A DNA stretch of 64,000 nt from Haliscomenobacter sp. (GTDB lineage: Bacteria; Bacteroidota; Bacteroidia; Chitinophagales; Saprospiraceae): contig JADKCX010000021.1 of the NCBI GenBank assembly GCA_016718685.1, positions 1,650 through 65,649 of the forward strand. The letters are read 5' to 3'. The translations under genes and the position numbers were made by a program. Positions 8,619 through 57,044 of the stretch are shown here, piece after piece; position 1 is the first letter of the stretch; each line of letters starts with the position of its first letter. Below the pieces are notes generated by a model. That model saw only the letters and a list, made by a program, of their open reading frames with translations, ran no database searches and was not told the DNA's origin.

Positions 8619-9155
8619 TTACTGCTTCACCTCCAAGCTCCCATCCACCGCACTAAAGCGGATATTCGAAAAATCCTGATTGGCGGTAAAACCGTGGCTG
8701 CGGATAGTATCCTTGAGGGTCGTGACGACTACAAAGCGGTTGGTGGATACTTGTTGATCTCGTTCGTTCCAGGTGAGTTCTGGTGATTCCAACTTTTTGC
8801 CATCTACACTTTTCCATACTACACTGTCCCGCACAAGGGTCAGCCCCTTGTACTCGTAACGCACGGCATATTTAGCCGTTAGTGTGCCCGCCAGTGCGCC
8901 CGTTGTATTAAAAAAATCCACCTTAATGCCCTTAATGAATTCCTGACGGGGGTCATCCGTCACCAAATGACGCAGCATGACCGGACCACGAATGCGCACC
9001 CGGATCAGGGCTGAATCGCTGTACAGCATGTCTACATCATTGATGGTTTCCAGGTATACAGCTTCCTTCGAAAACGTTTCTACTTGTTCTTCTTTACCTG
9101 CACAGCCTTGCAAAAACAAGATGGCCAATGCGGTGAGGGTAAGGATATTGCGCAT
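8619..9155 (-). CDS. lptC: LptC-like periplasmic lipoprotein
   Basis: I start the gene at the internal Met (MRNILTLTALAILFLQGCAGK, lipobox). The upstream part of ORF 8619..9284 is translation of a word-repeat hairpin. The body (D..YSDSA.I...G.V...EF.KG..V.F....G...L.A.YA......L..V.W.......L...ELTW......T...V......G.GF.A.QDFS) resembles Bacteroidota LptC. Confidence 0.5.
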   Translation of the reverse strand: MRNILTLTALAILFLQGCAGKEEQVETFSKEAVYLETINDVDMLYSDSALIRVRIRGPVMLRHLVTDDPRQEFIKGIKVDFFNTTGALAGTLTAKYAVRYEYKGLTLVRDSVVWKSVDGKKLESPELTWNERDQQVSTNRFVVVTTLKDTIRSHGFTANQDFSNIRFSAVDGSLEVKQ

Positions 9156-9165
9156 ATTGAAGGAA

Positions 9166-9295
9166 GTTGAAAAGATGAGGGTTGAAAAGTTGAAAAGTAG
9201 TTGAAAAGTTAGTGCGTTTAAAAGTTTTTTGCAAAGATCGCAAATCTTGCAGTACCCACAACTTTTCAACTTTTCAACCTTCAACTTTTCAACTT
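9166..9295. repeat. Word-repeat palindrome (GTTGAAAA / TTTTCAAC family)
   Basis: The left arm 9166-9210 holds 4 GTTGAAAA-like words. The unique centre has its own small stem. The right arm 9260-9295 reads AACTTTTCAACTTTTCAACCTTCAACTTTTCAACTT. The element sits 2 nt after the stop of adhesin gene 9297..12293. Confidence 0.85.
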
Positions 9296-9296
9296 A

Positions 9297-12293
9297 TTAT
9301 CGTACCAAAGTGATATCCCCTTTAAAAAGCAACACTTCGTCGTCGATGAATTCAATCTCGGCCACATACACGTATACCCCTGAGGGCATAAGCTGGTCGC
9401 GATAGGTGCCATTCCAGCCCAAGGGCTCTTGTCCCATCGGAAGATCCTTTCCATCGAACATCTGTTCCCCCCAACGATCAAAAACTTGCAGGCGCCGAAT
9501 TTTTCGGGCCGCCGGGCCACCGTATAAAGTAAAAAAATCATTTTGCCCATCCTGGTCGGGCGTAAATGCATTAGGAGTATAAATGGGTCGGTTTTTAATC
9601 ACGGTTACCAATAATTCATCTTCCGCTTTACACCCCACCCCATCGGTCACTTCAATCCGAAAACGTACGGTACGCAAAGGACCGGCCAAGGTGGTTTGGC
9701 AAGTAGAACAAGTCACCAAATCAGCAGGAGACCATTGGTAAGTCACCCCAGCATTACTCGATGAAGCCGAAAGGGTGATTTTTTGACCCAAATCAATCGA
9801 TAAGTCCAAACCAGCATCAACCAATAAGGGCAAGGGCTGGTTGATTACCACATCCTGTGTGGCCGTGCAACCTCCTCCATCTTCTACGGCCACGGTATAA
9901 TTGCCAGCTAATAAACCAATAAACCTATTGTCACTTTGGAAAGGACCTCCATTGATGCCATATTTATAAGGAGGCCGCCCCCCCCGCACCAAGCAGGCTA
10001 ATGATGCCTGATGCATCCCCATAACATATCACGTCAATGGGCTGGATGTCACCAATACTTAGCAGAGGAGGGTCTACCAAAGTAGCAAGGGTATCTCGGT
10101 TACACCCGTTGGCGTCGGTCAGGGTTACCCGGTATGTGCCTGCCAGCAAATCGGAACGAAAAGGGGCTATTGAGCCATTGTCCCATACATAAGTATAGGT
10201 TCCGGTTCCACCTTCACCCGCAATGTCTACGGCACCGTCTTTGGCTCCAAAACAACTGGGGTCACTGCTATTCATTTGTAAAACCAGGCGCGGAAAATCT
10301 TCCACCGAAAAATTGAACTCCCCTTTGCACAAGTTTTGATCCTGCACGGCAACCCGGTAAGTGCCCGCTCGAATGTTGCGCAGCGAATTGTCTCCTCGAA
10401 AACCTTGCCCATCGTTCCAGTTGTACTGGTAAGGTCCTTGGCCATTGCCCAGGTTGACGATGATGGAACCGTTATCAAACCCAAAACAGGTAGGCCGGGT
10501 AATGGCGTCTACCGAAGGGTCCAGGCGTAAGGTGATTTCGCGCACCTTGAGCAAGGTATCTTTTTCACAGCCATTTTGGTCGCGCCAACGCAAGGTATAA
10601 TCCCCTGCAGCGACGTTGCGAAGGAATGGATTGGGACTTAAAGGCCCATTGTTCCAGCTGTATTGATACGGCGCGGTACCACCAGTAAGTTGAACGGAAA
10701 GTTCACCATCTCGGCCACCATTACAGGTTGCTTCTTTGTCTTGTGCGGCGAGCACAAATGGCGTTGGGCCTTTTATGGTGAAAGTAAGGGTAGTATCACA
10801 AGTGGCTTGATCTGTGATGTTGATGGAGTAGGTGCCCGGCGCGAGGTTTTGCAAGTCTTCGTTGCGGGTACCATTGTTCCAGGCATAAATATAGGGCCCA
10901 TAATCATTACTCACGCCTACGTCAATGGACCCAGTAAGACTACCCGGGCAGTTCTCGTCCCGGGTTTGGCCACTGAGGGTAAAATGATCCCTGCAACATT
11001 CTACTTCAATCTCTTTAACCTGGGTAACCTGACAGCCGTCTGTGCTGGTTACGTTCAGCACCACATTTTTTTTGCCTGGCCGGGTAAATTCTACTTTATG
11101 AGGGCCCTGGCCATTTACCACACCACTTTGGTTAGATGTCGGGCCAAAAACCCATTCCCATTTGGTGAATCCCCCATTAAAGCTAGACGCATCGGTAAAA
11201 CTCACTTCCTGTCCAATACAGGCTGGGCTGGAATCTAGGTTAAAATCGGCTTTGGGGCCTACAAAAGTACCCGTACCTCCGAAAGTAATGGTGTAGCCTG
11301 AGCCAGATTGGCTATAGTTATTGATTACCAAAGCATAGGCTTTGCCTTTTTCCATTGCTACAGCGGATAGAAAATTATTATAGCCTGTTTCACAACCGCA
11401 ATATTCAACATTTCCTTGTTCTCCTTCTCTCAATCCAGTGGCACCAGTACACCGGATCCAGGTACTCATAGGGCGATCTACGTTTTCCCCTGCTGACATA
11501 CAGCTAATGGCCCGCTTTCCTGAGCAACTATTCACGCCATTGGGAAGCTCAAAAAGTACAAAATCAATATCATCATCTGGGTTAAGTGGATTGATGTTGA
11601 AAGTTAAGGTTCCCGATACATCACAAGTCCATTTGAACCAGTTTGATTGGGATTCACTAGGGTTACAGCCCAGCCTGCCACAAACGCCGTCAATTTCAGT
11701 AGTGTCCAAACCTTCCCCTCGCACAAAAGGGATGCTAAGGGCTTTTTTGCTACAAAGGATGTTGCCAGTGGGGCAATCACTACTGGGTTGTTGCGTAGCA
11801 GAATAGTTATTGATACAAAGTTGAAAAGTACCATTCCCATTTACACGCGAGCTGACGCGAATGTAATAACGCTGTCCAATAATCAATCTGGATGAAAACT
11901 TTGAATGGAATTACGATTGAATGCATCCGAGATACAAGTATTGGCCTCTCTTAAATTACCACAAGTACCTGTATAAAGTGCAAACTGTGGCGATCGTAAA
12001 GTCCCACCTGCATTTAGCCGTGTAGCACCAGAGATACTAATATTGACATCAGAACCAATTGCATCAAACGCAAACCAAACATCATTTGGAACATTAGATG
12101 CTGGCATACACCCCGGAGTGGCAAGCCCAACGGTGGGCGTTGCCCCAACAGTAGTATATTGCCTTACCATCGAACACCACCCATCTAAACTATCCAACAC
12201 AATTGCATTGGCACAATTGTCGTTTACAGGAGCCTGAGCATGTAGACTACTCAGCGCACAACAGCAAAAAAACAGCATAAATATTTTTCTCAT
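9297..12293 (-). CDS. SprB-repeat/PKD cell-surface protein with T9SS type B sorting domain; two frame disruptions
   Basis: Three serial ORFs make one gene. 11883..12293 has signal peptide MRKIFMLFFCCCALSSLHAQ. 9964..11886 has PKD-like WEWVFG and SprB-type repeats (C.G..DG.......GG..PY.Y.WN.G). 9297..10022 has the last SprB repeat and the CTD (YTPNAFTPDQDGQNDFF...GVYVYVAEIE...GDITLVR). The first shift is near 11886-11900. The second is at the C8 (coding strand G8) run 9978..9985, where G7 would restore ...LLGAGGRPPYKYGINGGPF. Confidence 0.8.
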
Positions 12294-12409: not shown

Positions 12410-13141
12410 ATGACAAAAAAAAGCCAAATGCTCCATCACTTGCCCAACGCTGTTACACTATTGAATCTTTTTTGTGGTGCTTGTGCAAGCCTTTGCATCA
12501 TCTACGGACGTTTGGAATGGGCCATCGGGTTGGTAGCACTTGGGGCATTGTTCGATTTATTGGACGGAATGGTGGCGCGATGGTTAAATGTGCACTCCGA
12601 ATTGGGCAAACAACTGGATTCACTGGCCGACATGGTCTCTTTTGGTTTGGTGCCGGGATTGATTGTATATGGACTTATTGCTGCAGCATGGCAGGGACAT
12701 TGGCCAAAAGATTTGGAACTACGGGCGCTCCCGGCTTTTTTACTCACGCTTTTTGCTGCCCTGCGCTTAGGCAAATTCAACCTGGATGAACGCCAAACGG
12801 AAGGTTTCTTGGGTTTGCCTACTCCGGGATGTACCCTGTTTATGATTGGATTACTGGGTTTGTACCTTTCTCCAGCGCCTGGTTTGGCTTTTCTTTTTAA
12901 TGTTGGCGTGCTTTATGGCATCACTTTGCTCTTTTCCGTCCTGATGGTGGTAGAAATTCCCATGTTCAGTTTTAAATTCAAAACCTTACAATGGACAGGC
13001 AATGAGATAAGGATTATCTTTGCGGCGATTTCAGTAGCATTGGTAGTTAGCTGGCAGGTGGCTGGCTTATCTGCTGTGGTGCTGCTGTACATCATATCTT
13101 CTTGTTTCATTCATTTCTTTAAGCGTAAACCATTGCCATGA
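12410..13141 (+). CDS. pssA: CDP-diacylglycerol--serine O-phosphatidyltransferase
   Basis: CDP-alcohol phosphatidyltransferase motif DLLDGMVARWLNVHSELGKQLDSLADMVSFG (DG..AR...G..LD...D). Multi-pass membrane protein of 243 aa. Confidence 0.85.
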   Translation: MTKKSQMLHHLPNAVTLLNLFCGACASLCIIYGRLEWAIGLVALGALFDLLDGMVARWLNVHSELGKQLDSLADMVSFGLVPGLIVYGLIAAAWQGHWPKDLELRALPAFLLTLFAALRLGKFNLDERQTEGFLGLPTPGCTLFMIGLLGLYLSPAPGLAFLFNVGVLYGITLLFSVLMVVEIPMFSFKFKTLQWTGNEIRIIFAAISVALVVSWQVAGLSAVVLLYIISSCFIHFFKRKPLP

Positions 13142-13392
13142 AATTTGTTGCAGAAATTGACATTATGCCCCATAAAGAATTGCTCGACCCCCAGGGTAAA
13201 GCAGTCTCCCATAACCTCAAAAACATCAACATCCAGGAAGTATCCGATGTGCGCATCGGCAAACACATCACCCTCACCCTGGAAGCCGAAACGGAAGATG
13301 CTGCCCGCGAAATCGTTGACAACGCCTGCCGCAAACTATTGGCCAACCTGATTATGGAAACCTTTACGTTTGAATTAAGCTCACAGGAATAG
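13138..13392 (+). CDS. purS: Phosphoribosylformylglycinamidine synthase subunit PurS
   Basis: 84 aa. MKFVAEIDIMPHKELLDPQGKAV...L matches the PurS pattern. ATGA overlap with the pssA stop. Confidence 0.9.
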   Translation: MKFVAEIDIMPHKELLDPQGKAVSHNLKNINIQEVSDVRIGKHITLTLEAETEDAAREIVDNACRKLLANLIMETFTFELSSQE

Positions 13393-13476
13393 GGTTTGAA
13401 GGTTCGGGAGTTCGAAGGTTCGAGGGTTTATGGCTCAGAACTCCCGAACCCCCGAACCTTCAACCCCCCGAACTCT
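13392..13476. repeat. Word-repeat palindrome (GGTTCGRG / CYCGAACC family)
   Basis: TTGAAGGTTCGGGAGTTCG (left) pairs with CGAACCCCCGAACCTTCAA (right) with one mismatch. The element fills the spacer from the purS stop to the rsmI start. Confidence 0.85.
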
Positions 13477-20147: not shown

Positions 20148-20250
20148 GCTACGAAGATTTTTTCAGACTGCCAATAGCCAGCTCCAATTGGTCATTAATT
20201 CGACAATTGAGAAACAATGGATGTGAGAATGTGGCGTTGGAGAAAGGAAT

Positions 20251-20283
20251 GAAAAGTGAAAAACTAAAGTGAAAAGTGAAAAG
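20251..20283. repeat. Single-arm tandem word run (GTGAAAAG)
   Basis: GAAAAGTGAAAAACTAAAGTGAAAAGTGAAAAG. I found no reverse-complement partner nearby. Confidence 0.6.
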
Positions 20284-21977: not shown

Positions 21978-22250
21978 ATGGACAAGGAACAATTGAAAGA
22001 ACAACTGGTCGCCACTAAAGAAAAAGCCCAGGAAAAATTGGCGCAACTGACGGAAATGGCCAAAGAAGGTGCCGCCGAAGCCAAAGAAGAAATTCAGGAG
22101 CAAATCGAATTTTTGAAAGGAGCAACCAGCAACCTCGGTGAAAAACTCGAAGAGCTGGGTGCTGAAGCCAGCGAAGAGTTCGGCGAGCTGAAAGAAAAAG
22201 CCATCAGTGGCATCAATGCCTTGAAAGAGCGTTTTAAGGATTGGTTTTAA
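21978..22250 (+). CDS. Hypothetical coiled-coil protein (E/K/A-rich)
   Basis: 90-aa ORF on its own in the spacer, with strongly helical E/K/L composition. No recognisable family. Confidence 0.45.
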   Translation: MDKEQLKEQLVATKEKAQEKLAQLTEMAKEGAAEAKEEIQEQIEFLKGATSNLGEKLEELGAEASEEFGELKEKAISGINALKERFKDWF

Positions 22251-22260
22251 TACTTCAGTT

Positions 22261-22382
22261 GAGAAGGTTGAGAAGTTGAGGAGGTTGAGTGGGTTTTACG
22301 CCAGCTGACTCTGCCTCCAAACTCTTCAACCTTCTTCAACTCTCTCAACTCTAACTCTCAACTCTAAACTCTTCAACTTTTA
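22261..22382. repeat. Word-repeat palindrome (GTTGAGAA / TTCTCAAC variant), asymmetric
   Basis: The left arm is about 32 nt (GAGAAGGTTGAGAAGTTGAGGAGGTTGAG). The right arm is about 62 nt of CTCTTCAAC/CTCTCAACT words and ends 4 nt before the GTG start at 22387. Pairing is imperfect. Confidence 0.75.
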
Positions 22383-25075: not shown

Positions 25076-25120
25076 AAAAAAAGGTGTTACTTCAACGACT
25101 GAGGTAACACCTTTCTTTTT
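25073..25120. terminator. Bidirectional rho-independent terminator between sqr and the TlpA-like gene
   Basis: A8 then AAAGGTGTTAC (25079-25089), a 13-nt loop, GTAACACCTTT (25103-25113), then a T-rich run. Both convergent genes end here. Confidence 0.8.
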
Positions 25121-25721: not shown

Positions 25722-27419
25722 ATGAACCGTTTAAGTATTCCGTTCGGGATAATATCGCTGTTGTTGCTGTTTTGTCCGCTACAAACCAAAGCCCAGGAAC
25801 AAGCTCCGCCCTCTGGTGGCCAAGTTTCTGGAAGTTTACAAACCAATGCCAACTTCTTTATCCGCGATTCCTTGATCGGAGCAGCCAATACACCGCAGTA
25901 CGATCGGCAACTGTACGGGGCGGAAGCATGGCTCAACCTCAATTACAACAACTGGGGTTTTGATTTTGGCTTGCGTTTTGATGCGTTCAACAACTCCAAT
26001 TTGCTCAATCCCACCGATTCTTATTCCGACCAGGGCATCGGCATGTGGTTCATCAAAAAGCAGGTTGACAAATTGGGCATTACCGCCGGATACATTTATG
26101 ACCAGATAGGCAGCGGCATCATTTTTCGTGCTTTTGAGGAACGTCCCCTGCTGATTGACAATGCGCTGATTGGCCTACGCTTGGATTATAGCCTGGGTGA
26201 AAACTGGAAAATCAAAGGTTTTACCGGGCGGCAAAAACAGCAGTTCAGCAGTTACCGCCCCATCATCAAGGGGGTCAATGTAGAAGGTTTCGTCAGCACT
26301 GAGGATGAAAATGCCTGGACTTTGGCTCCCGGCCTGGGAATTGTAAATCGTACCCTCGACGACCAGGCGATGAACTCCCTGGTGTCAGTACTCAATACCT
26401 ATGGTCAGGACTACATTTTTATCCCTAAGTTCAATACGTATGCGTTCAGTGCCTACAACACCCTCAGCAAAGGTGCTTGGTCCTGGTATTTGGAAGGCGC
26501 TTATAAAACGCCTGATGCCCAAAACGATCCTTTTGCCGAAACCATCATCAATCAGGACACCATTACCGGGGATCGTTTTTTCCAAAAAGCGGGATCGGTG
26601 TTGTACAGCAACCTGAGCTATGCTGGAGATCGATTCGGGGTGAGTGTGGAAGGGAAACGCACTGAAAACTTCTCCTGGCGCACTCGCCCGCAAGAGCAGG
26701 CCAATCGGGGAACCCTCAATTTTATTCCCCCTATGGCTCGCTCCAATACCTACCGCTTGACTTCGCGGTACAATGCGGCTACTCAAGAGCTGGGGGAATT
26801 GTCTTTCCAGGTGGATTTGCGCTATGCACCCAGCAAAAAATTGAGTTTTAACCTCAACGCTTCAAACATCCAAAACCTGGACAATGAATTGCTCTATCGC
26901 GAGATTTATGCAGAAATGACGGTAAAAATCAAAAGAAATACCACCATTATTGCCGGTGTGCAGCGACAGGAATACAACCAGGAGCGATTTGAAGTGAAAC
27001 CCAACGTGCCTTTGGTGCGCACCATCACGCCCTTTTTTGAGTATCAATACAAGTTTACGCCCCGCAAGTTGTTGCGGGTAGAAGTACAGTACATGCACAT
27101 GGAAGAGGATGTGGTAGCCAACGCGGGTGCTGATTTTGGCTCCTGGGCCTGGATTCAGGCCGAGTATACACTAGCTCCGCACTGGACTTTTGCGGCGGCG
27201 AATATGTTCAACGCCGTTCCGGGTGTAGCCAGTCCAGTCGAAAATGGACAACGCAAAGCCTTGTACTACCCGCGCTTTGACGTGTTTTACACCATAAAAT
27301 CCAATCGATTTTCATTGAGCTACATCAAACAAGTGGAGGGTGTGGTTTGCACCGGAGGGATATGCAGGTTGGAACCTGCTTTTAGCGGATTTCGCTTTGC
27401 GGTGACGAGCACGTTCTAG
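25722..27419 (+). CDS. Putative outer-membrane beta-barrel protein (DUF6029-like)
   Basis: Starts at MNRLSIPFGIISLLLLFCPLQTKAQ (signal peptide). 565 aa of alternating beta pattern with C-terminal ...FRFAVTSTF (terminal Phe). Divergent from the TlpA-like gene. The family name is from memory and unverified. Confidence 0.5.
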   Translation: MNRLSIPFGIISLLLLFCPLQTKAQEQAPPSGGQVSGSLQTNANFFIRDSLIGAANTPQYDRQLYGAEAWLNLNYNNWGFDFGLRFDAFNNSNLLNPTDSYSDQGIGMWFIKKQVDKLGITAGYIYDQIGSGIIFRAFEERPLLIDNALIGLRLDYSLGENWKIKGFTGRQKQQFSSYRPIIKGVNVEGFVSTEDENAWTLAPGLGIVNRTLDDQAMNSLVSVLNTYGQDYIFIPKFNTYAFSAYNTLSKGAWSWYLEGAYKTPDAQNDPFAETIINQDTITGDRFFQKAGSVLYSNLSYAGDRFGVSVEGKRTENFSWRTRPQEQANRGTLNFIPPMARSNTYRLTSRYNAATQELGELSFQVDLRYAPSKKLSFNLNASNIQNLDNELLYREIYAEMTVKIKRNTTIIAGVQRQEYNQERFEVKPNVPLVRTITPFFEYQYKFTPRKLLRVEVQYMHMEEDVVANAGADFGSWAWIQAEYTLAPHWTFAAANMFNAVPGVASPVENGQRKALYYPRFDVFYTIKSNRFSLSYIKQVEGVVCTGGICRLEPAFSGFRFAVTSTF

Positions 27420-27420
27420 T

Positions 27421-27515
27421 TGAAGAGTTTAAGGTTGAAAAGTTGAAAAGTTGGTCACTTACCGAAGCTAAGGTGTAAGTCTTTTCAACTTTTCAACTAT
27501 AAACTTTTCAACTCC
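27421..27515. repeat. Word-repeat palindrome (GTTGAAAA / TTTTCAAC), best example
   Basis: GTTGAAAAGTTGAAAAG pairs perfectly (17 bp) with CTTTTCAACTTTTCAAC. There is an inner stem ACTTAC/GTAAGT. The element occupies the entire gap between convergent stops at 27419 and 27516. Confidence 0.9.
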
Positions 27516-27776
27516 CTAAGAGTGTGGTGCGTCGATATTAGAATTAGACGGAGCAGAAGCAGAAGGCTGTTGTTGCTGAGCTTTGTTGTCAGCTTCGCGG
27601 ATACCTTCCTTCAACTCGGATTCAATCGTTGATTTTGCAGCGTTGAACTCACGAATACCCTTACCAATGCCACGCATCAGTTCTGGAATTTTTCTACCAC
27701 CAAACAAAAGCAGGATCGCAAAGAAAATCAGTAAGACTTCCGATCCGCCCAAAGCAAACAACATCATTGTTTTCAT
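27516..27776 (-). CDS. tatA: Twin-arginine translocase subunit TatA/E
   Basis: 86 aa. LFALGGSEVLLIFFAILLLFGGRKIPELMRGIGKGIREFNAAK is the TatA TM plus amphipathic helix signature. Confidence 0.9.
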   Translation of the reverse strand: MKTMMLFALGGSEVLLIFFAILLLFGGRKIPELMRGIGKGIREFNAAKSTIESELKEGIREADNKAQQQQPSASAPSNSNIDAPHS

Positions 27777-30020: not shown

Positions 30021-30120
30021 GTAGTTGAAAAGTTGGTGGTTGAAGTGTTGAAAAGTAGTCGGAAGTTCAAGTTAGGGTCACTAAACTTGAACTTCCGACT
30101 ACTCAACCTTCAACTCAACT
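30021..30120. repeat. Word-repeat palindrome (GTTGAAAA family) with 20-bp perfect unique inner stem
   Basis: The outer arms are GTTGAAAAGTTGG.GGTTGAAG.GTTGAAAAG / CTCAACCTTCAACTCAAC. The inner stem AGTAGTCGGAAGTTCAAGTT pairs perfectly with AACTTGAACTTCCGACTACT. The element lies between divergent gldB (start 29979) and the OMP gene (start 30147). Confidence 0.85.
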
Positions 30121-30146
30121 TACTCCGCCACCAAAACAATCGAAAT

Positions 30147-30872: not shown

Positions 30873-30938
30873 GGTTCGAAGGTTCGTGGGTTCGGGAGTT
30901 GGGGAGGTCTAATCCTTTGAGTCTCGAATCCACGAGCG
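30872..30938. repeat. Degenerate word-repeat palindrome (GGTTCGRG family)
   Basis: The left arm is GGGTTCGAAGGTTCGTGGGTTCGGGAGTTGGGG. The right arm is only CTCGAATCCACGAGCG, about 12/16 complementary. It lies between convergent gene ends. Confidence 0.6.
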
Positions 30939-30953: not shown

Positions 30954-31502
30954 TCAAACGACAGGGGCTCTATCTAAGTCGCTATAAGGGTAATGCCCTG
31001 CTTGCTTCAATTTTTCAAATAACTGATCAGCGCCATTTTTTCTAGCATATTCCATTTCGCTTCTAAAAACTTGAATGCACAGCAGCAAATGATGTTGCCT
31101 GTCGCCAATTTTAAATTTCTTGTTTTCAGGTTCATATAAGTCAAAGATTAAACAAGTATTTTCTTTGCCTTCATCGTTGGGGATTTCGCAAGTTTCATTT
31201 GGGTTTATAATAGCTTGCCTTGAATAATCCCCAATTGTTGTGAAAAAACCACAGACCTTTCGTTCAATAAAATTAAAAGGGGTCTGTGTATCACTGTTGT
31301 GCTCGTAATTGTGCTTGGTAAAAGCCACAAGTTCATATGTCCCATGCCTGTTTGGCAAAGGGCCAGTTCCATCTGGTTCTAAAAGTTCCATCGTCACAAA
31401 ACCTGTGCCCTTGATATGATTGGGGAAATAATACATGTCAACTGCGCCTCCAACTGCAAAAGAAATGATTGCATGCCCAACCAAGTCGTGCATTTTACCC
31501 AA
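30954..31502 (-). CDS. SUFU-like (suppressor-of-fused domain) protein, possible orphan immunity protein
   Basis: 182-aa ORF. The layout and composition resemble bacterial SUFU-domain proteins (by eye). The same frame stays open and protein-like upstream (...FKKLFGIAEQQTAKEFTEQEYETDYELKVQGLENVLGK) to about 31620. An ATG at 31629 is in another frame, so the true start is unresolved. GC is low (about 34% in one 100-nt sample). Confidence 0.45.
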   Translation of the reverse strand: MGKMHDLVGHAIISFAVGGAVDMYYFPNHIKGTGFVTMELLEPDGTGPLPNRHGTYELVAFTKHNYEHNSDTQTPFNFIERKVCGFFTTIGDYSRQAIINPNETCEIPNDEGKENTCLIFDLYEPENKKFKIGDRQHHLLLCIQVFRSEMEYARKNGADQLFEKLKQAGHYPYSDLDRAPVV

Positions 31503-31654: not shown

Positions 31655-31717
31655 AAGGTTCGGAGATAATCAGTACCTCGGCTTCGCTCGGCGACTTAGT
31701 TGAACTCCCGAACCCTT
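31655..31717. repeat. Degenerate word-repeat palindrome (GGTTCGRG family)
   Basis: AAGGTTCGGAG ... AACTCCCGAACCCTT. Immediately downstream of the stop at 31718. Confidence 0.5.
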
Positions 31718-32089
31718 TTACTTCTGCTTAGGTTGCCTGGCTCCTTTCCCCTTCTTCGGCCGATTCGCCTTCATGGCATCCAGCTTCGCCTTTTGTTCCT
31801 CGTTCAACACGGTGCGAATTTCTTCTTGCATGGCCTGCATGAGCGGTGCCATAGCCTCGCGACGGGCTGTTTGGTCCGTATTGCCATCACGGGCTTCCTT
31901 CATTTTAGGTCGGTAGTTACCAATGATATTTTTGATGCTGGTTTCCTGTTGGGTGCTGAGACTCAGCTTGATTTTCATGGAGTCCATGTTCATCATCGGG
32001 AAACGTCCAACCCCTTTTTGTTGGGCACTTGCGTTCAAGGAGCCCAGTAGTAAAAATGCAAAAAACAGACTGATTTTTAGCAGTTTCAT
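31718..32089 (-). CDS. Periplasmic LTXXQ-motif (Spy/CpxP-like) protein
   Basis: Signal peptide. Two L(S/N)..Q motifs (LSTQQ, LNEEQ) in a helical K/E-rich 123-aa protein with a basic tail. Confidence 0.55.
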   Translation of the reverse strand: MKLLKISLFFAFLLLGSLNASAQQKGVGRFPMMNMDSMKIKLSLSTQQETSIKNIIGNYRPKMKEARDGNTDQTARREAMAPLMQAMQEEIRTVLNEEQKAKLDAMKANRPKKGKGARQPKQK

Positions 32090-33307: not shown

Positions 33308-33339
33308 CTTGGTTAAAGTTGTGAGAAGGTTAAGCAACT

Positions 33340-34736
33340 TTAAGCCATCAGCCTTAACCACAATTGGTATTCCGGTAAAGTCATCAAACGCAAGGTCATC
33401 TGCCGGATGATCGATTCTCGGTCGGTTGCGGCCAATTCTTTGGTGTAGGACTCAATGGGCAGCGCGGGTTGAGCGGACAGCAGGTATTTTGCCAACTCGG
33501 CGGCAATGTCATTGGCGGACGATCCTTTAACGCTGCCGCTGAGGGGTGCCATGTTGAGGGTGTTGCTCAGGCGACGACCACCTTTTTCGCGCGTTTCGTC
33601 TTCAAATTCCCCTTTGGTGCGCAGGCTGAATTCGGTGGCATTGAACAAATAACCCGGCAGGTTCAGGCGCAGCATCAAGGTCGAGTTGTCGATCCAGGTT
33701 TTGCCGCCCGGCCAACCCGCTACGTTGGGCGGATTGAAGAGGATTTGTCCCAAAGCCCGCTGAATGAACAGCATGCCCATTGGCTGGTCAAATTTCATAT
33801 CGACCGTACGCATCAAACCTGCGGTAAATTCAATGGGCGACTTGATGCGGTTGCCCATATTTGGGGGGGCGTAAAACCATTCGCTGGAAAAAATACTGTG
33901 CATCAGCTTGCCGATGTCGTAACCTGATTGGTAAAACTGCTTGCTCAAGGTTGAGACCACCACTTCATCCACTTGCTCATTTACAAAGTGTTTGTACACT
34001 TTACGCACGATGAATTGTGCCGTTTCGGGTCTCTCCAAAATGATGTTGATGATGTCGGCTCCATCAAAATTGCCCGTTTTCCAAAAAAAGTTTTGCTGCC
34101 GTAATCGTGCCAGAAAGGCCGGAAAAGATAGTCTCCACGAAGGTCGCTCGACCAACCCGTAAAGGCCCTTGCCGCCTCTTTGATGTCTTTTTCACTGTAC
34201 TTGCCCCGACCTAGGGTAAAGAGTTCCATCAATTCACGGGCGAAGTTTTCATTTGGTTTTTCCTTGCGGTTTTGTTGGTTATTCAGGTAACGAATCATGG
34301 CAGGGTCTTGCGCGACGGCCAGCAACATGTCTTTAAAATTGCCTAGGGCATGTTTGCGTAAGGTATTGAGATACTGCATGCTGAGCTTGCCGAAGTCTGG
34401 CTTACAAGCAAAGTGGCCATGCCAAAAAAAGGTCATGCGCTCTAGCAGGGCACTTTCTTTTGGGTTGGCCATGCGGTACACCCAGTTGACATTGTATTCA
34501 AAGATGCGACGTTTTTCTTCGCGCAAAACCTGTTCAAATAGCTCGCGGTTTTCGCGCTTTTTTTCCATGTCTTCCGGCAAACCCATTTCGGCCATCGGAA
34601 GCGCAACTTGTGCCTGCCGCGCTTGGGTAAACAGCTCGTCAATGGCCTTGCTGATGGGCCATTCGCGTCTTTGTTGCCACTCTGTTGGGCTCAGGCCAAA
34701 ACCTGCGCGCCAGTAGAGGTGTTTGATCTTCTCCAT
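33340..34736 (-). CDS. DUF1800 domain protein; one homopolymer frame disruption
   Basis: ORFs 33981..34736 and 33340..34155 are one gene (...HDYGSKTFFGK / TGNFDGADIINIILERPETAQFIVRKVYKHFV). The shift is at the A7 run 34083..34089 (T7 on the coding strand). This is the classic partner of DUF1501. Confidence 0.85.
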
Positions 34737-37822: not shown

Positions 37823-37928
37823 TAAGTCAGACTTGAGGCATCCCGTTAAAGCTTTGTGATTGTCCAATGATTTTGCAAGGCTTTTTGAGTTACGTTTTCA
37901 CCATGGATTGCACAGATGAACACAGAAC

Positions 37929-40187
37929 TTAGACAAAATCTGTCTTCATAAACTGTAAGTCATGACCATGTACTGTCACCTTGAAGCCAAAGAAATTATT
38001 ACTTCCCGGAGGGCAATTTTCCCTCAAAAACTTTGTAAACATCGTCCCCAAATGCTTGGAGGTTCCCTCGCCTTCACTGATGCCGTGTGAACGGTTGGGA
38101 TAAGCCATCATCTGGAACTGTTTGTTGTGTTTGATCAGCTCGTTGATCAACAGCTCTGCATTTTGGTAATGCACGTTGTCGTCTCCGGTGCCGTGTACGT
38201 AGAGCAATTTACCCTTGAGGTTTTTGGCGTACGTGATCGGCGAACCTTTCACAAAATCCTCCATATTTTCTTGTGGCAAACCCATGTAACGTTCCTGGTA
38301 AATGTTGTCGTAGCACAACTGATTCGCTACTGCGGCTACGGAGAAGCCCGCTTTGTAAATTTCAGGATGTTGGAACAGGAGGTTGAGCGTGGCACTGCCG
38401 CCGCCGCTCCAGCCCCATACCGCAACCCTGGAAGTATCGATGTATCCCCACTTGAAAATTTCTTTGGCGCCCATCGCCTGATCATGGATGTTGACCAGAC
38501 CAATTTTGCGGTAAATGGATTTGCGCCAGGCTCGGCCTTTGGGAGCAGGAGTCCCCCGATTGTCTAGCGAGACGTAGACGTAGCCATCATCGGCCATGCT
38601 GCCCTGGTACATATTGGCATTCCCGGTGCCCCAGGAATTGTTTACGGTTTGTCCGGCGGGTTCGGTGTACACGTAAAACACCACCGGGTATTTTTTTTGT
38701 GGATCAAAATTAGTGGGTTTGACCACCCAGCCGTCCATGGTTACATTGTCGGGGGTGGTGACCTGAAAAAACTCCACCTTCGGGCCAACACTTTCCGTTT
38801 TCACCGCTTCTGCTTTAGGCTTAAGGGGTTTGCAATCGGGAATAGAGACCCAGTCGCTTTGCGGACGGGTATTGACATTGGAAAAGCGCTGCTGCGCAAA
38901 ACGGCCGCTGGGTGAAAACTGATAGCCATATGTGCCCTGCGTATTGGCGGGTGAGAGGCGTTCCGCTTTGCCGCTGCCATCCAAATTTGTTTTGTAGAGG
39001 TATTTTTCGGCGGCGTTGTCCGGGGAGGCAATGAAATACACCACGTTGTTTTTTTCATCAATCAACCCCGGATCAATCACATCGTAATTGCCTGCGGTGA
39101 TCAGTTTTTCCTGTTTGCCATCGCGGCTGATGCGGTAGTAGTGGCGCCAGCCATCCTTTTCGGTCAACCACAAGAATTCCTTCCCGCCGTTGATCCAATC
39201 CCAATCCTGATTGGGATCAAGTTGTACATCCACCCAAGCTTCATCTTTTTCTTCCAAAATAACCTTGGCCGTTCCATTGGTGATGTTGCACAGGAAAATT
39301 TTGCTCACCTGTTGTTTGCGGTCCAGTTGTTGCAGGACGATTTCGGTAGCATTCGCCGCCCAGCTCATGCGGGGGATGTAATGCTGCCGATTGTCGCCGG
39401 GCACGTTCATCCAGCGGGTAGCGCCCCCTTTGACGGGTACAATGCCAACGCGACAAGCTGAAGGCGTCTCGCCAACTTTGGGGTATTCTACGGGAATGGT
39501 GTACGAATAAATAGAATCGGTGGTATTCATCATCAGGAAGTACTTCACCGCAGTGGCGTCGATTTGCCAGTAGGCAATGTTGTTGCCATCAGGGCTCCAG
39601 CGAAAGCCATCGCGACAGAAAAATTCTTCTTCATAGGCCCAATCAAAGGTGCCATTGATGATTTTGTCGGTACCGTCCTTGGTCAATTGGGTGGTTTTGT
39701 TGTCCGCCAGATTTTCCACATAAAGGTTGTGTTTACTGACATAGGCCACTTTGCTGCCATCGGGCGAAAATTTGGCGAACATCAGCGAAGAAACTGGAAG
39801 GTTTGCCCCCAATTGTTTGAGTGTTTTTTTATCCAGGTCCAATACCCAGTAATCACCCCGGGTATCCATCCGCCAAACCCGGACGGAATTGGTATAAATC
39901 AATGCTTTGCGGTTGTCTTTCGAAAGTTGGAAAGAGCGCACCCGCAAGGCCTGGGTTTTTCCCGCAGGCGTAAGCATCGCCGCGTCGGCAATGACACTCC
40001 GGGTCTGTTCGGGTAGGGTGTATTGTACAATCTCGCTTTTTTCGCTGGTCCAATAGGCATTGCCATCCTTGGTCCATTGATTTCCGCCCCCTTGGGCAGA
40101 TAAGTTGGTGTGGACTAAAGCCAGCAGCACCACAATGATACACACGCGCTGATATACAGCAGAAATGAGTAGGGTAAACTTATTCAT
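37929..40187 (-). CDS. Dipeptidyl-peptidase IV-type S9 serine peptidase
   Basis: Starts at MNKFTLLISAV... (signal). DPPIV N-terminal beta-propeller region, catalytic VAVWGWSGGGS, later GTGDDNVHYQN and PNRSHGI. The upstream 52 aa of the track ORF is unsupported. Confidence 0.9.
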   Translation of the reverse strand: MNKFTLLISAVYQRVCIIVVLLALVHTNLSAQGGGNQWTKDGNAYWTSEKSEIVQYTLPEQTRSVIADAAMLTPAGKTQALRVRSFQLSKDNRKALIYTNSVRVWRMDTRGDYWVLDLDKKTLKQLGANLPVSSLMFAKFSPDGSKVAYVSKHNLYVENLADNKTTQLTKDGTDKIINGTFDWAYEEEFFCRDGFRWSPDGNNIAYWQIDATAVKYFLMMNTTDSIYSYTIPVEYPKVGETPSACRVGIVPVKGGATRWMNVPGDNRQHYIPRMSWAANATEIVLQQLDRKQQVSKIFLCNITNGTAKVILEEKDEAWVDVQLDPNQDWDWINGGKEFLWLTEKDGWRHYYRISRDGKQEKLITAGNYDVIDPGLIDEKNNVVYFIASPDNAAEKYLYKTNLDGSGKAERLSPANTQGTYGYQFSPSGRFAQQRFSNVNTRPQSDWVSIPDCKPLKPKAEAVKTESVGPKVEFFQVTTPDNVTMDGWVVKPTNFDPQKKYPVVFYVYTEPAGQTVNNSWGTGNANMYQGSMADDGYVYVSLDNRGTPAPKGRAWRKSIYRKIGLVNIHDQAMGAKEIFKWGYIDTSRVAVWGWSGGGSATLNLLFQHPEIYKAGFSVAAVANQLCYDNIYQERYMGLPQENMEDFVKGSPITYAKNLKGKLLYVHGTGDDNVHYQNAELLINELIKHNKQFQMMAYPNRSHGISEGEGTSKHLGTMFTKFLRENCPPGSNNFFGFKVTVHGHDLQFMKTDFV

Positions 40188-40588
40188 ATGCCTGACAATT
40201 TTGGGAAAGTTAAGAGAAATAATAAGCAATAAGCGCGCTGGAAACCAAAAACTGCCGTGTGCAGGGAATTGGTCGACGAAGGAAGGATTGGCGTTGGAAG
40301 CCGGAGGCATAAAAAAAGAGCATCCTCCAAGAGGATGCTCCAAGATTCCCTAAAATCACCCGAATTATTAATCAATAATAGCGATTAACTGTCACAAATA
40401 AACAGGTTTTGAACAGGGTATTCGATGACATTTATCATGAATCCCTTTTGATTTTCATCATGCACGAAATAATGCTGCAATTTTTTTATTTCAATTCCTG
40501 AAAGTCACCCCTTTACTTTGATTTTGCTCATTGTCTTCCGATCAGGTTTTTGGCTTTTTTGCAACAAGTTCAACTTCAACTTACGATC

Positions 40589-41444: not shown

Positions 41445-41508
41445 GCTTGAGAAGTTGAGTTTTAAGTTCGGCGAGCGACATGCACTACTTAATCAACTTT
41501 CAACTTTA
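41445..41508. repeat. Degenerate word-repeat palindrome (GTTGA-word family)
   Basis: CTTGAGAAGTTGAGTTTTAAGTT ... ACTTAATCAACTTTCAACTTT. Lies between the usp stop and the HDAC start. Confidence 0.6.
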
Positions 41509-42490: not shown

Positions 42491-42606
42491 GGGTTCGGGG
42501 TTTTCGTCGTTCGAGGTTCTGGGAGCAATGCTCGCCACGACCCCGAACCCTGAACCCGAAACCCTGAACCCCCGAACCCAAACTCAAACCCTAAAACCCT
42601 CGAACC
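42491..42606. repeat. Word-repeat palindrome (GGTTCGRG / CYCGAACC), strongly asymmetric
   Basis: CAGGGTTCGGGGT pairs perfectly (13 bp) with ACCCCGAACCCTG. The right side then continues for about 55 nt of (A/C)CCCGAAC / CCCTGAAC / CCCTAAAAC words up to the mnmE ATG at 42607. Confidence 0.85.
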
Positions 42607-45052: not shown

Positions 45053-45166
45053 GTTGAAGGATTTAAGGGTTGAAAAGTTTGGGCGCTACAAGGCATTACA
45101 GTGGTAATGGAAATTGTGCATTATCTAACATTTCCAACTTTTCGGCGCAGCAACTTTTCAACTTTT
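45053..45166. repeat. Word-repeat palindrome (GTTGAAAA / TTTTCAAC)
   Basis: GTTGAAGGATTTAAGGGTTGAAAAGTTTGG ... CCAACTTTTCGGCGCAGCAACTTTTCAACTTTT, with inner stem CATTAC/GTAATG. Lies between the bestrophin stop and the pepP start. Confidence 0.8.
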
Positions 45167-56047: not shown

Positions 56048-56080
56048 ATAAAAAAAGCCTTCCGGAGAACCGAAAGGCTT
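56048..56080 (-). terminator. Rho-independent terminator after tRNA-Val
   Basis: On the minus strand, AAGCCTTTCGG-TTCT-CCGGAAGGCTT (11-bp stem including one G.U) followed by T6. Confidence 0.8.
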
Positions 56081-56207: not shown

Positions 56208-56322
56208 TGCCCACATTTTAGTTTGCGCAAGTCCTGACCGCATTTTTTTTGGAAAAAATAAAAAAGCCGATGAAATAGCAATCTCCACCGGCATCATATG
56301 TGAACAAAAGTATAAGCTTATT

Positions 56323-56952: not shown

Positions 56953-57044
56953 AGAATGATGAATTATGAATGAGGAATGATGAATGTAAGCAAGCCTCCT
57001 TAAGTCTAAGAATAAAATCAATTCATCATTCATCATTCATCATT
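56953..57044. repeat. Word-repeat palindrome built from GAATGAT / ATCATTC words
   Basis: The left arm is AGAATGATGAATTATGAATGAGGAATGATGAATG. The right arm is AATTCATCATTCATCATTCATCATT. The centre is about 33 nt. The right arm overlaps the fcl stop codon by 2 nt. Confidence 0.8.

Follow-up and report, generated by a model that had tools for sequence, protein, structure and literature searches.

Cyanobacterial short tandemly repeated repetitive (STRR) heptamers are said to be intergenic tandem words, often hairpin-forming, with small dispersed-repeat cassettes at their centres. In Xanthomonas campestris and X. axonopodis pv. citri, convergent inverted arrays of the heptamer GGGAATC were reported at 70–75 pairs per genome (Rehm et al. 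2015, PMC4692102). These arrays lie at a mean of 28 nt from the upstream open reading frame (ORF) versus 160 nt from the downstream ORF; their length varies between species, the repeat type (single or inverted pair) is usually preserved, and both plasmids of X. axonopodis pv. citri are free of them (PMC4692102). TAACTGA direct repeats were found in Beggiatoaceae, some Cyanobacteria and five Bacteroidetes (MacGregor 2015, PMC4679880). Repetitive extragenic palindromic (REP) elements are imperfect palindromes of 20–40 bp with a 5–13-bp stem and an unpaired GTAG or CGTC tag; they adjoin or overlap stop codons, a role in mRNA stabilisation has been proposed for them, and in one survey REPs with a CGTC tag were reported from the phylum Bacteroidetes (PMC3733652). 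Proteobacteria are the group in which REP-like repeats have been well studied; the family of tandem-word palindromes described here comes from a 64,000-nt stretch of a Haliscomenobacter sp. (Saprospiraceae; contig JADKCX010000021.1, positions 1,650–65,649; hereafter the window), a member of the Bacteroidota.

The window holds 11–12 hairpin-forming palindromes, the arms of which are tandem 7–9-nt words (GTTGAAAA, GTTGAGAAG, GGTTCGRG and GAATGAT). With modest confidence, we favour reading them as lineage-specific extragenic palindromes of Haliscomenobacter/Saprospiraceae that are akin to REPs and bacterial interspersed mosaic elements (BIMEs) and that presumably act as 3′ or intercistronic hairpins. 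Intergenic tandem-word palindromes had been proposed in a first-pass annotation of the window, and their existence is borne out by word excess, inverted arrays and folding. GTTGAAAAGTTGAAAA (with at most two mismatches) occurs 6 times in the window versus 0.08 expected, and GGTTCGRGGGTTCGRG occurs 10 times versus 0.12 expected. Elements were detected as Tandem Repeats Finder (TRF) arrays with a reverse-complement partner downstream, instead of by whole-window Lfold local folding, which is too unspecific for hairpin detection. Arrays of period 7–9 were found at all two-arm loci named in the annotation, each with a reverse-complement array downstream. When the RNA folds of 11 elements were compared with 200 dinucleotide shuffles each, 9 of the 11 folded better than all shuffles (z = −3.5 to −9.8), and the other two, 41445–41508 (z = −1.5) and 31655–31717 (z = −1.3), fold weakly; comparison with relatives suggests that these are decayed copies. 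The sole Rfam match in the window is one tRNA, no element being matched at the gathering score, and Rfam searches of the relatives returned just sub-threshold eukaryotic microRNA-precursor models, i.e., generic long hairpins; thus, no catalogued Rfam family matched the elements. HIP1 (GCGATCGC) is also absent from the window, and a cyanobacterial origin was rejected, the encoded proteins pointing to Haliscomenobacter; an exact look-up of one protein encoded in the window gave no record. The element on which the annotation centred is the following:

27418..27513, palindrome whose 30-nt centre is flanked by the arms (GTTGAAAA/GTTGAAGA)n and (TTTTCAAC)n

Its arms (27418–27450 and 27481–27513) are 33 nt each and 91% complementary. 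The perfect 17-bp stem that had been described as filling a gap between convergent stops at 27421–27515 was recovered at these coordinates, as the inner stem pairing 27434–27450 with 27481–27497. The element occupies the whole 96-nt gap between the TAG (27417–27419) of a DUF6029 outer-membrane protein gene on the plus strand and the stop (27516–27518) of tatA on the minus strand. Its folding free energy (dG) is −44.6 kcal/mol for the plus strand and −39.4 kcal/mol for the minus strand (z = −7.9 and −6.3, respectively).

The elements form a family, as had been supposed, and it extends beyond the window. Many copies in relatives carry a conserved 14-bp inner stem, GCTACCGCGAGCGA...TCGCTCGCGGTAGC, between the arms; this core is often extended by another conserved palindromic stretch, and identical arms plus core recur at different loci in several genomes. 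With a 19-nt probe consisting of the last word plus the core, matches were obtained in at least 120 stretches of metagenome DNA; one activated-sludge assembly alone accounts for at least 29 of these, at 9–14× coverage, and because the arm–core composite recurs in this many stretches, the palindromes constitute a dispersed repeat family. Among 93 complete copies there are 74 distinct centres of 5–118 nt; half of the centres start with CA and finish with TG, 18 of the 93 contain a second or duplicated core half, and one (contig L140) contains a complete nested element. Outside the core, the arms have a median length of 27 nt, or about three words. A census of 923 kb of metagenome contigs yielded 171 word palindromes. 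In 88 of them, or about 1 per 10 kb, the bait core is missing, and the words of these 88 are diverse (CACGACGA, ACGCGGATT and CGAATGA, for example). Family density is roughly one copy per 5–10 kb. When species-representative genomes were searched with a three-word probe, all arrays in Haliscomenobacter/Saprospiraceae had the reverse complement downstream, whereas arrays in other taxa were mostly single.

The window is about 92% identical at the nucleotide level (blastn) to Haliscomenobacter hydrossis DSM 1100 (CP002691.1), and its 2-oxoglutarate (2OG) oxygenase protein is 97% identical to the counterpart there. The blastn high-scoring segment pairs between the two are interrupted exactly at the elements 27421, 30021 and 31655. 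Orthologous spacers were compared across six genomes, namely the window, H. hydrossis, L123, L126, L124 and L003, whose 2OG-oxygenase genes are 76–92% identical (nucleotide). At 40–46 kb of the window, where H. hydrossis orthologs were also sought, synteny is partly broken and the best relatives of the deacetylase gene are 81–86% identical. Four sites in the series compare as follows:

tatA/DUF6029 spacer: GTTGAAAA hairpin in the window; GTTGAGAAG plus core in H. hydrossis and L123; contig end in L126; GGTTCCAAG hairpin in L124; synteny broken in L003
Outer-membrane protein (OMP) gene stop: GGTTCGRG words in the window and H. hydrossis; strong GGTTCCAGG palindrome in L123 and L126; gene outside the contig in L124
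OMP/GldB divergent spacer: hairpin in the window, H. hydrossis and L126; absent from L123 and L003; genes outside the contig in L124
DUF1800/DUF1501 spacer: relic in the window; H. hydrossis and L126 with a full element of about 100–115 nt including the core; L123 with an empty spacer of 19 nt; genes outside the contigs of L124 and L003

At these orthologous sites the hairpin is retained, although its words, core and centre undergo replacement or deletion. The tatA/DUF6029 hairpins range from −40 to −78 kcal/mol across orthologs with differing words, and the OMP/GldB hairpins of the three genomes that have one share their outer words around unrelated interiors. Presence/absence was found at three sites, each accounted for by loss, and every site polymorphism is explicable as loss or decay of an ancestral copy on a rough gene-identity tree. 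The series shows how a palindrome can be long-lived while its own sequence is replaced. The two arms also change together. In 12 aligned copies, found independently of the core, 90.7% of cells are standard pairs versus 81.9% in shuffles (slid controls, 33–47%), and 14 of 26 pairs show change on both sides; none of 500 shuffles reaches the observed values. Because the arms co-vary beyond shuffles, palindromic symmetry is actively kept, either by selection or by arm-to-arm copying.

The elements were said to start close behind stop codons, and they do: window elements begin −2 to +7 nt from the stop and, between co-directional genes, end 0–41 nt before the next start. Most window copies lie in co-directional spacers, which they fill. 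For metagenome copies of the core with both flanks (n = 66), 49 spacers are co-directional (74%), 11 convergent and 6 divergent, whereas the background spacers of the same loci comprise 179 co-directional, 39 convergent and 53 divergent ones. Where an ORF of 100 aa or more runs toward an element, the median distance from its stop to the element is 3 nt (n = 89). The stop lies within the outer arm in 31 of these 89 cases, 24 of which are TGA supplied by the word itself.

A second regularity concerns orientation. Of 20 Haliscomenobacter copies, all 20 have the G/purine-rich array as their 5′ arm, a rule that holds on both strands because the elements are palindromes. The core-less palindromes of the 923-kb census follow it as well (purine-rich 5′ arm, 75 vs. 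11, p = 7e-13), as do words unrelated to the two main families (38 vs. 11, p = 1e-4), and the mean C content of 5′ arms is 10–16%. It suggests that translation or transcription imposes a constraint, for which we consider two candidate causes. First, purine-rich words read outward carry stop codons, so that the protein might not be lengthened where an element touches or overlaps the end of a gene; the 24 TGA stops located in arms agree with this, and the GGTTCSRG words do not. Second, a C-poor first arm might avoid C-rich RNA, and thus Rho loading, before the hairpin closes. The orientation rule, which is also valid for unrelated words and is stated for the Xanthomonas arrays, is a simple and testable regularity, and together with the long orthologous series it is the part most worth further work.

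Besides 27418..27513, the window contains the following elements, listed together with one single-arm array (20250..20283):

9164..9295, GTTGAAAA/TTTTCAAC palindrome (dG −50.1, z −8.6), 1 nt past the stop of minus-strand gene 9297..10022 and upstream of the next minus-strand gene
13393..13473, GGTTCGRG/CYCGAACC palindrome (dG −45.6, z −4.7), immediately after the stop of ORF 13138..13392 (plus strand), co-directional context
20250..20283, plus strand, single-arm (TGAAAAG)5 array lacking an inverted partner (scores for a partner, 5 and 7)
22258..22378, GTTGAGAAG/CTYCTCAAC palindrome with unequal arms of 32 and 59 nt (dG −47.5, z −5.2), starting 7 nt past the stop of the 90-aa ORF 21978..22250 (plus strand)
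30021..30120, outer arms of GTTGAA words enclosing a unique inner palindrome of 19 bp (dG −53.6, z −9.8), in the divergent spacer between a GldB-like gene (minus strand) and an OMP_b-brl_2 gene (plus strand; true start near 30137)
30873..30938, GGTTCGRG array with imperfect partner (dG −33.3, z −5.2), directly after the stop of the OMP_b-brl_2 gene (plus strand), convergent context
31655..31717, degenerate and weak GGTTCGG/CCGAACC element, directly after the stop of minus-strand gene 31718..32089
33331..33359, decayed GTTGAG-word relic in the DUF1800/DUF1501 spacer, missed in the first-pass annotation
41445..41508, decayed GTTGAG-word element with core remnant GGCGAGCGAC, between Usp and histone-deacetylase-family genes (both plus strand)
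42491..42606, GGTTCGGG/CCCGAACC element in which the 3′ array is by far the longer one (dG −43.8, z −4.3), spanning the entire spacer from stop 42488 to ATG 42607
45053..45166, structured 60-nt centre flanked by GTTGAAAA/TTTTCAAC outer arms (dG −33.9, z −3.5), 5 nt past stop 45047 and 41 nt ahead of start 45208
56954..57044, (GAATGAT)n...(ATCATTC)n palindrome of a third word family (inverted-partner score 18), likewise missed before

Several of these have counterparts in relatives. The H. hydrossis ortholog of 22258..22378 has a perfect 32-bp stem plus half of the conserved core, that of 30873..30938 is near-identical, and that of 31655..31717 is fuller than the window copy; at the site of 41445..41508, L248 has a stronger hairpin and L250 has none. 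The elements 30873..30938 and 31655..31717 are possibly the two halves of one ancestral palindrome. A single GGTTCCAGG palindrome joins the stops of the LTXXQ-like and OMP genes in L123 (5042–5121) and L126 (7992–8080), while in the window and H. hydrossis each of these stops has a G-rich arm behind it, with a gene (30954..31502) in between; H. hydrossis has two further genes between the arms, one with an Imm44 domain. To judge from this arrangement, the centre of an ancestral palindrome at window 30873/31717 may have received inserted genes.

Three single-arm runs had been listed besides the two-arm elements. The run at 20250–20283 is a true array, whereas 37911–37927 and 40568–40582 are two-copy runs that TRF does not report at its lowest score threshold, and we found no evidence that these two belong to the family. 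The 20250..20283 array is kept in H. hydrossis, lies between a PALP-domain enzyme gene and an extracytoplasmic function (ECF) sigma factor gene and is pyrimidine-rich when read along transcription; it is related to the palindromes in style only. The warning that the elements generate spurious ORF extensions is justified, since ORFs 8619..9284, 13430.. and 30033.. begin within elements. The family is relevant to annotating Haliscomenobacter and related sludge bacteria, because it creates such false ORF starts and because short-read assemblies break at it. L002, a Logan contig identical to H. hydrossis, terminates inside an element at both ends (L001 4326 and 11455), as high-copy repeats break short-read assemblies, and many metagenome matches sit at contig ends.

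How far do these elements resemble the known systems? The STRR heptamers, with a period of 7 versus mostly 8–9 here, are reportedly of other sequences and another lineage. Like the REPs, BIMEs and REP doublets forming hairpins (REPINs) of Enterobacteria and Pseudomonas (PMC3733652, PMC3116915), the elements are high-copy extragenic palindromes with the REP-type placement at gene 3′ ends or between cistrons, where they touch, overlap or even supply the stop; they likewise form species-specific families with vertical inheritance at fixed sites and variable centres. Unlike REPs, they have arms of tandem 7–9-nt words and a host in the Bacteroidota. With the Xanthomonas arrays they share tandem G-rich words followed by the reverse complement, an intergenic position near the upstream ORF and the convergent arrangement. 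However, many words are used here versus one 7-nt word there, the phylum is different, and no conserved inner stem was reported in Xanthomonas, in contrast to the core of the Haliscomenobacter family. G-quadruplexes were proposed for the GGGAATC arrays (PMC4692102), a point in favour of a structural role of the DNA here as well; unlike that word, however, GTTGAAAA, GTTGAGAAG and GAATGAT have no G-runs, and only some GGTTCGGG copies have runs of at least 3 G. The TAACTGA repeats (PMC4679880) are likewise short tandem words in spacers by genes with a patchy spread that includes Bacteroidetes, but they are direct repeats just upstream of starts with one inverted pair reported, whereas inverted pairs past stops are found here. 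The Xanthomonas arrays are the closest published parallel, and the convergent-word architecture is therefore already known; as for the family itself, our literature search found no description of it in Haliscomenobacter or other Saprospiraceae.

With regard to plasmids, the one examined, pHALHY01 of H. hydrossis, has a lower density of palindromes but not zero, in comparison with the array-free Xanthomonas plasmids: 3 other-word palindromes in 140 kb versus 7 in 85 kb of chromosome by the same criterion. This plasmid also bears one truncated GTTGAG/core half-copy (L251 19995–20060, record 127976–128041), with GTTGAG words and the left half of the core but no right arm; it starts 12 nt outside a site-specific integrase gene, on the side of the start codon.

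Several results weigh against the REP/BIME-like reading. The stems, at 17–45 bp versus 5–13 bp, are 2–5 times longer than those of REPs, and the elements measure 60–160 nt. They have no unpaired GTAG or CGTC tag, GTAG occurring only in the paired core (GGTAGC), and the outer boundaries (45 boundary pairs inspected of 88 determined) show no conserved unpaired tag, no target-site duplication and no fixed terminus. None of the copies in the window has an intact core. Six-frame translations of about 0.3 Mb of Haliscomenobacter/Saprospiraceae loci, a tiny sample, contain no signature (Y..NP plus HUH) like that of REP-associated tyrosine transposases (RAYTs). No clean insertion polymorphism was seen, and contigs that are 99.4–100% identical show no change in word copy number. 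Because of the latter result, turnover is visible at the species level and not at the strain level, and we infer mobility and slippage from the deeper comparisons only. Furthermore, sense and antisense strands of 23 co-directional copies fold equally well (mean dG difference −0.1 kcal/mol, Wilcoxon p = 0.81), and G-U pairs, an excess of which would be a sign of selection on the sense RNA, show no asymmetry (68 vs. 65 sense versus antisense; A-C mismatches, 22 vs. 22). This strand symmetry is compatible with maintenance at the DNA level, or with stems too perfect to leave a signal, and any role at the RNA level is one that we infer.

Under the favoured REP/BIME-like reading, each copy is a DNA palindrome of 60–160 nt lying within a few bases past a stop codon, with word arms and a hypervariable centre, to which the less decayed copies of relatives add the 14-bp inner stem. 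The elements would have spread to many sites in the past and would now be inherited vertically at fixed sites, as the comparison of genomes suggests. Turnover on site would involve slippage of words, copying or correction from arm to arm (or else selection that favours pairing), exchange of the centre and internal deletions. Tandem-word arms might arise since pairing alone matters, repeated words being able to pair despite unequal copy numbers. Most copies would be co-transcribed with the upstream gene, giving RNA hairpins of 17–45 bp with the base within the footprint of the terminating ribosome. These hairpins may act in a REP-like manner, by blocking 3′ exonucleases, by offering RNase III a possible site or by uncoupling neighbouring cistrons, and would not be canonical intrinsic terminators.

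An alternative that we consider improbable is that the elements are a new class of self-propagating palindromes in Bacteroidota, non-autonomous and copied just past stops by some enzyme, with a centre that accepts foreign DNA. Nested copies, and possibly the whole genes between the arms at 30873/31717, would be examples of the latter. In such a class, the outward stops in the slippage-prone word arrays would make the abutting or overlapping of genes harmless, and the position of the purine-rich arm at the 5′ side would thereby be accounted for.

The first-pass annotation had preferred a role as terminator or 3′-end stabiliser. The 3′-end role is still the most natural guess; a plain terminator is not supported, given the co-directional and divergent contexts, the missing T-tract and the strand symmetry. 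That the elements are intrinsic, often bidirectional, long-stem terminators, with TTTTCAAC words giving short U-runs in every register, thus seems rather doubtful. Their position directly behind stop codons, as with Rho-independent terminators, the 11 of 66 copies between convergent genes, the roughly two-fold depletion of divergent spacers and the A-rich left and T-rich right arm of GTTGAAAA/TTTTCAAC elements, as in bidirectional terminators, all agree with termination. However, 74% of copies lie between co-directional genes, about 0–15 nt from the next start, which leaves no space for a promoter, and the divergent spacer at 30021–30120 has retained a hairpin. T-runs are missing from the GGTTCGRG, GGTTCCAGG and GAATGAT families, the stems exceed those of Rho-independent terminators several-fold in length, and the loops are large; a stem sequence conserved across more than 100 loci is, moreover, unnecessary for termination. 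Terminator-like scans of the window did find normal terminators, i.e., hairpins with a GC-rich stem and a T-tract, at 25080–25114, 56055–56080 (minus strand), 56266–56292 (minus strand) and 40317–40341 (minus strand), but picked up none of the elements and no T-tract next to any of them; the elements therefore lack a T-tract, in agreement with what had been noted for most of them. The longest ORF call at that place, 37929..40343, includes the hairpin at 40317–40341 in its 5′ end, and its true start is probably further downstream than called.

To a similarly small degree, we credit the possibility that the elements are a local mutational by-product, i.e., 3′ hairpins that grow by replication slippage and intrastrand template switching, without dispersal and with functionless words. 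The many unrelated words sharing one architecture (CACGACGA, ACGCGGATT and CGAATGA among them), the unequal arms, the concerted word change at orthologous sites and the absence of strand asymmetry all speak for it, as does the occurrence of the architecture in other phyla and in Xanthomonas (PMC4692102). In contrast, the 14-bp core is present at more than 100 loci in several species, and an independent origin at each is impossible, so that a common descent of copies from different loci is in part established already for the core family; the orientation rule demands a selective or mechanistic cause, and the lower density on the H. hydrossis plasmid (3 per 140 kb vs. 7 per 85 kb) also argues against purely local growth.

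Still-active non-autonomous mobile elements, similar to MITEs (miniature inverted-repeat transposable elements) or REPINs, in which arrays plus core serve as terminal inverted repeats for some transposase or HUH nuclease, are unlikely. Conserved ends around a hypervariable interior, the high copy number, the presence/absence differences at orthologous sites and the 18 of 93 centres with nested or duplicated core halves, with one full nested element (L140), would suit such elements. However, target-site duplications are lacking, the termini are undefined and the arms variable in length, all polymorphisms are explained by loss of ancestral copies, and no Y1/HUH motif was found in the same 0.3 Mb of loci. 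Phages gave no match to the elements, and the sole insertion sequence (IS) nearby has unrelated ends. This 1.46-kb DDE-transposase IS of H. hydrossis (L001 1394–2854), which the window lacks at about 34800, has inverted ends CTGGACTTTATCCC and a CTTAA-type target duplication; a relation to the palindromes was considered and rejected because of its ends.

It is very improbable that the elements are protein-binding or structural sites at the DNA level, be it for a nucleoid protein, gyrase or a regulator or as G-quadruplexes in G-rich arrays: the stem sequence is conserved, the strands are symmetric and BIMEs of E. coli bind integration host factor (IHF) and gyrase, but many unrelated words argue against a single sequence-specific binder, GTTGAAAA and GAATGAT are unable to form G-quadruplexes, and the placement tied to stop codons suggests transcripts or translation.

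A few further observations concern the form that such elements take elsewhere. A Saprospiraceae metagenome-assembled genome contains a giant element of 369 nt (L035 4452–4820), in which some 23 copies of CGATTGGAC precede an array of the reverse complement, and the same locus holds 11 copies of AAGGTTGAG. Several elements have the 21-nt motif CTTCGGCTTCGCTCAGTGACC at their centre, in one orientation or the other (sites at L001 8830, L001 6058, L115 7895, L064 4929, L003 3607 and 4468, and L126 8799–8949), and the motif is also present in L003, where the site has no arms. Tandem inverted pairs of other words also occur in distant taxa (L055, L057, L104, L116, L094 and L119, from Acidobacteria, Verrucomicrobia, Desulfobacterales, Flavobacteriales and Prevotellaceae). 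In nearly all of these pairs the G-rich array comes first, and L057 has several different words within 8 kb.

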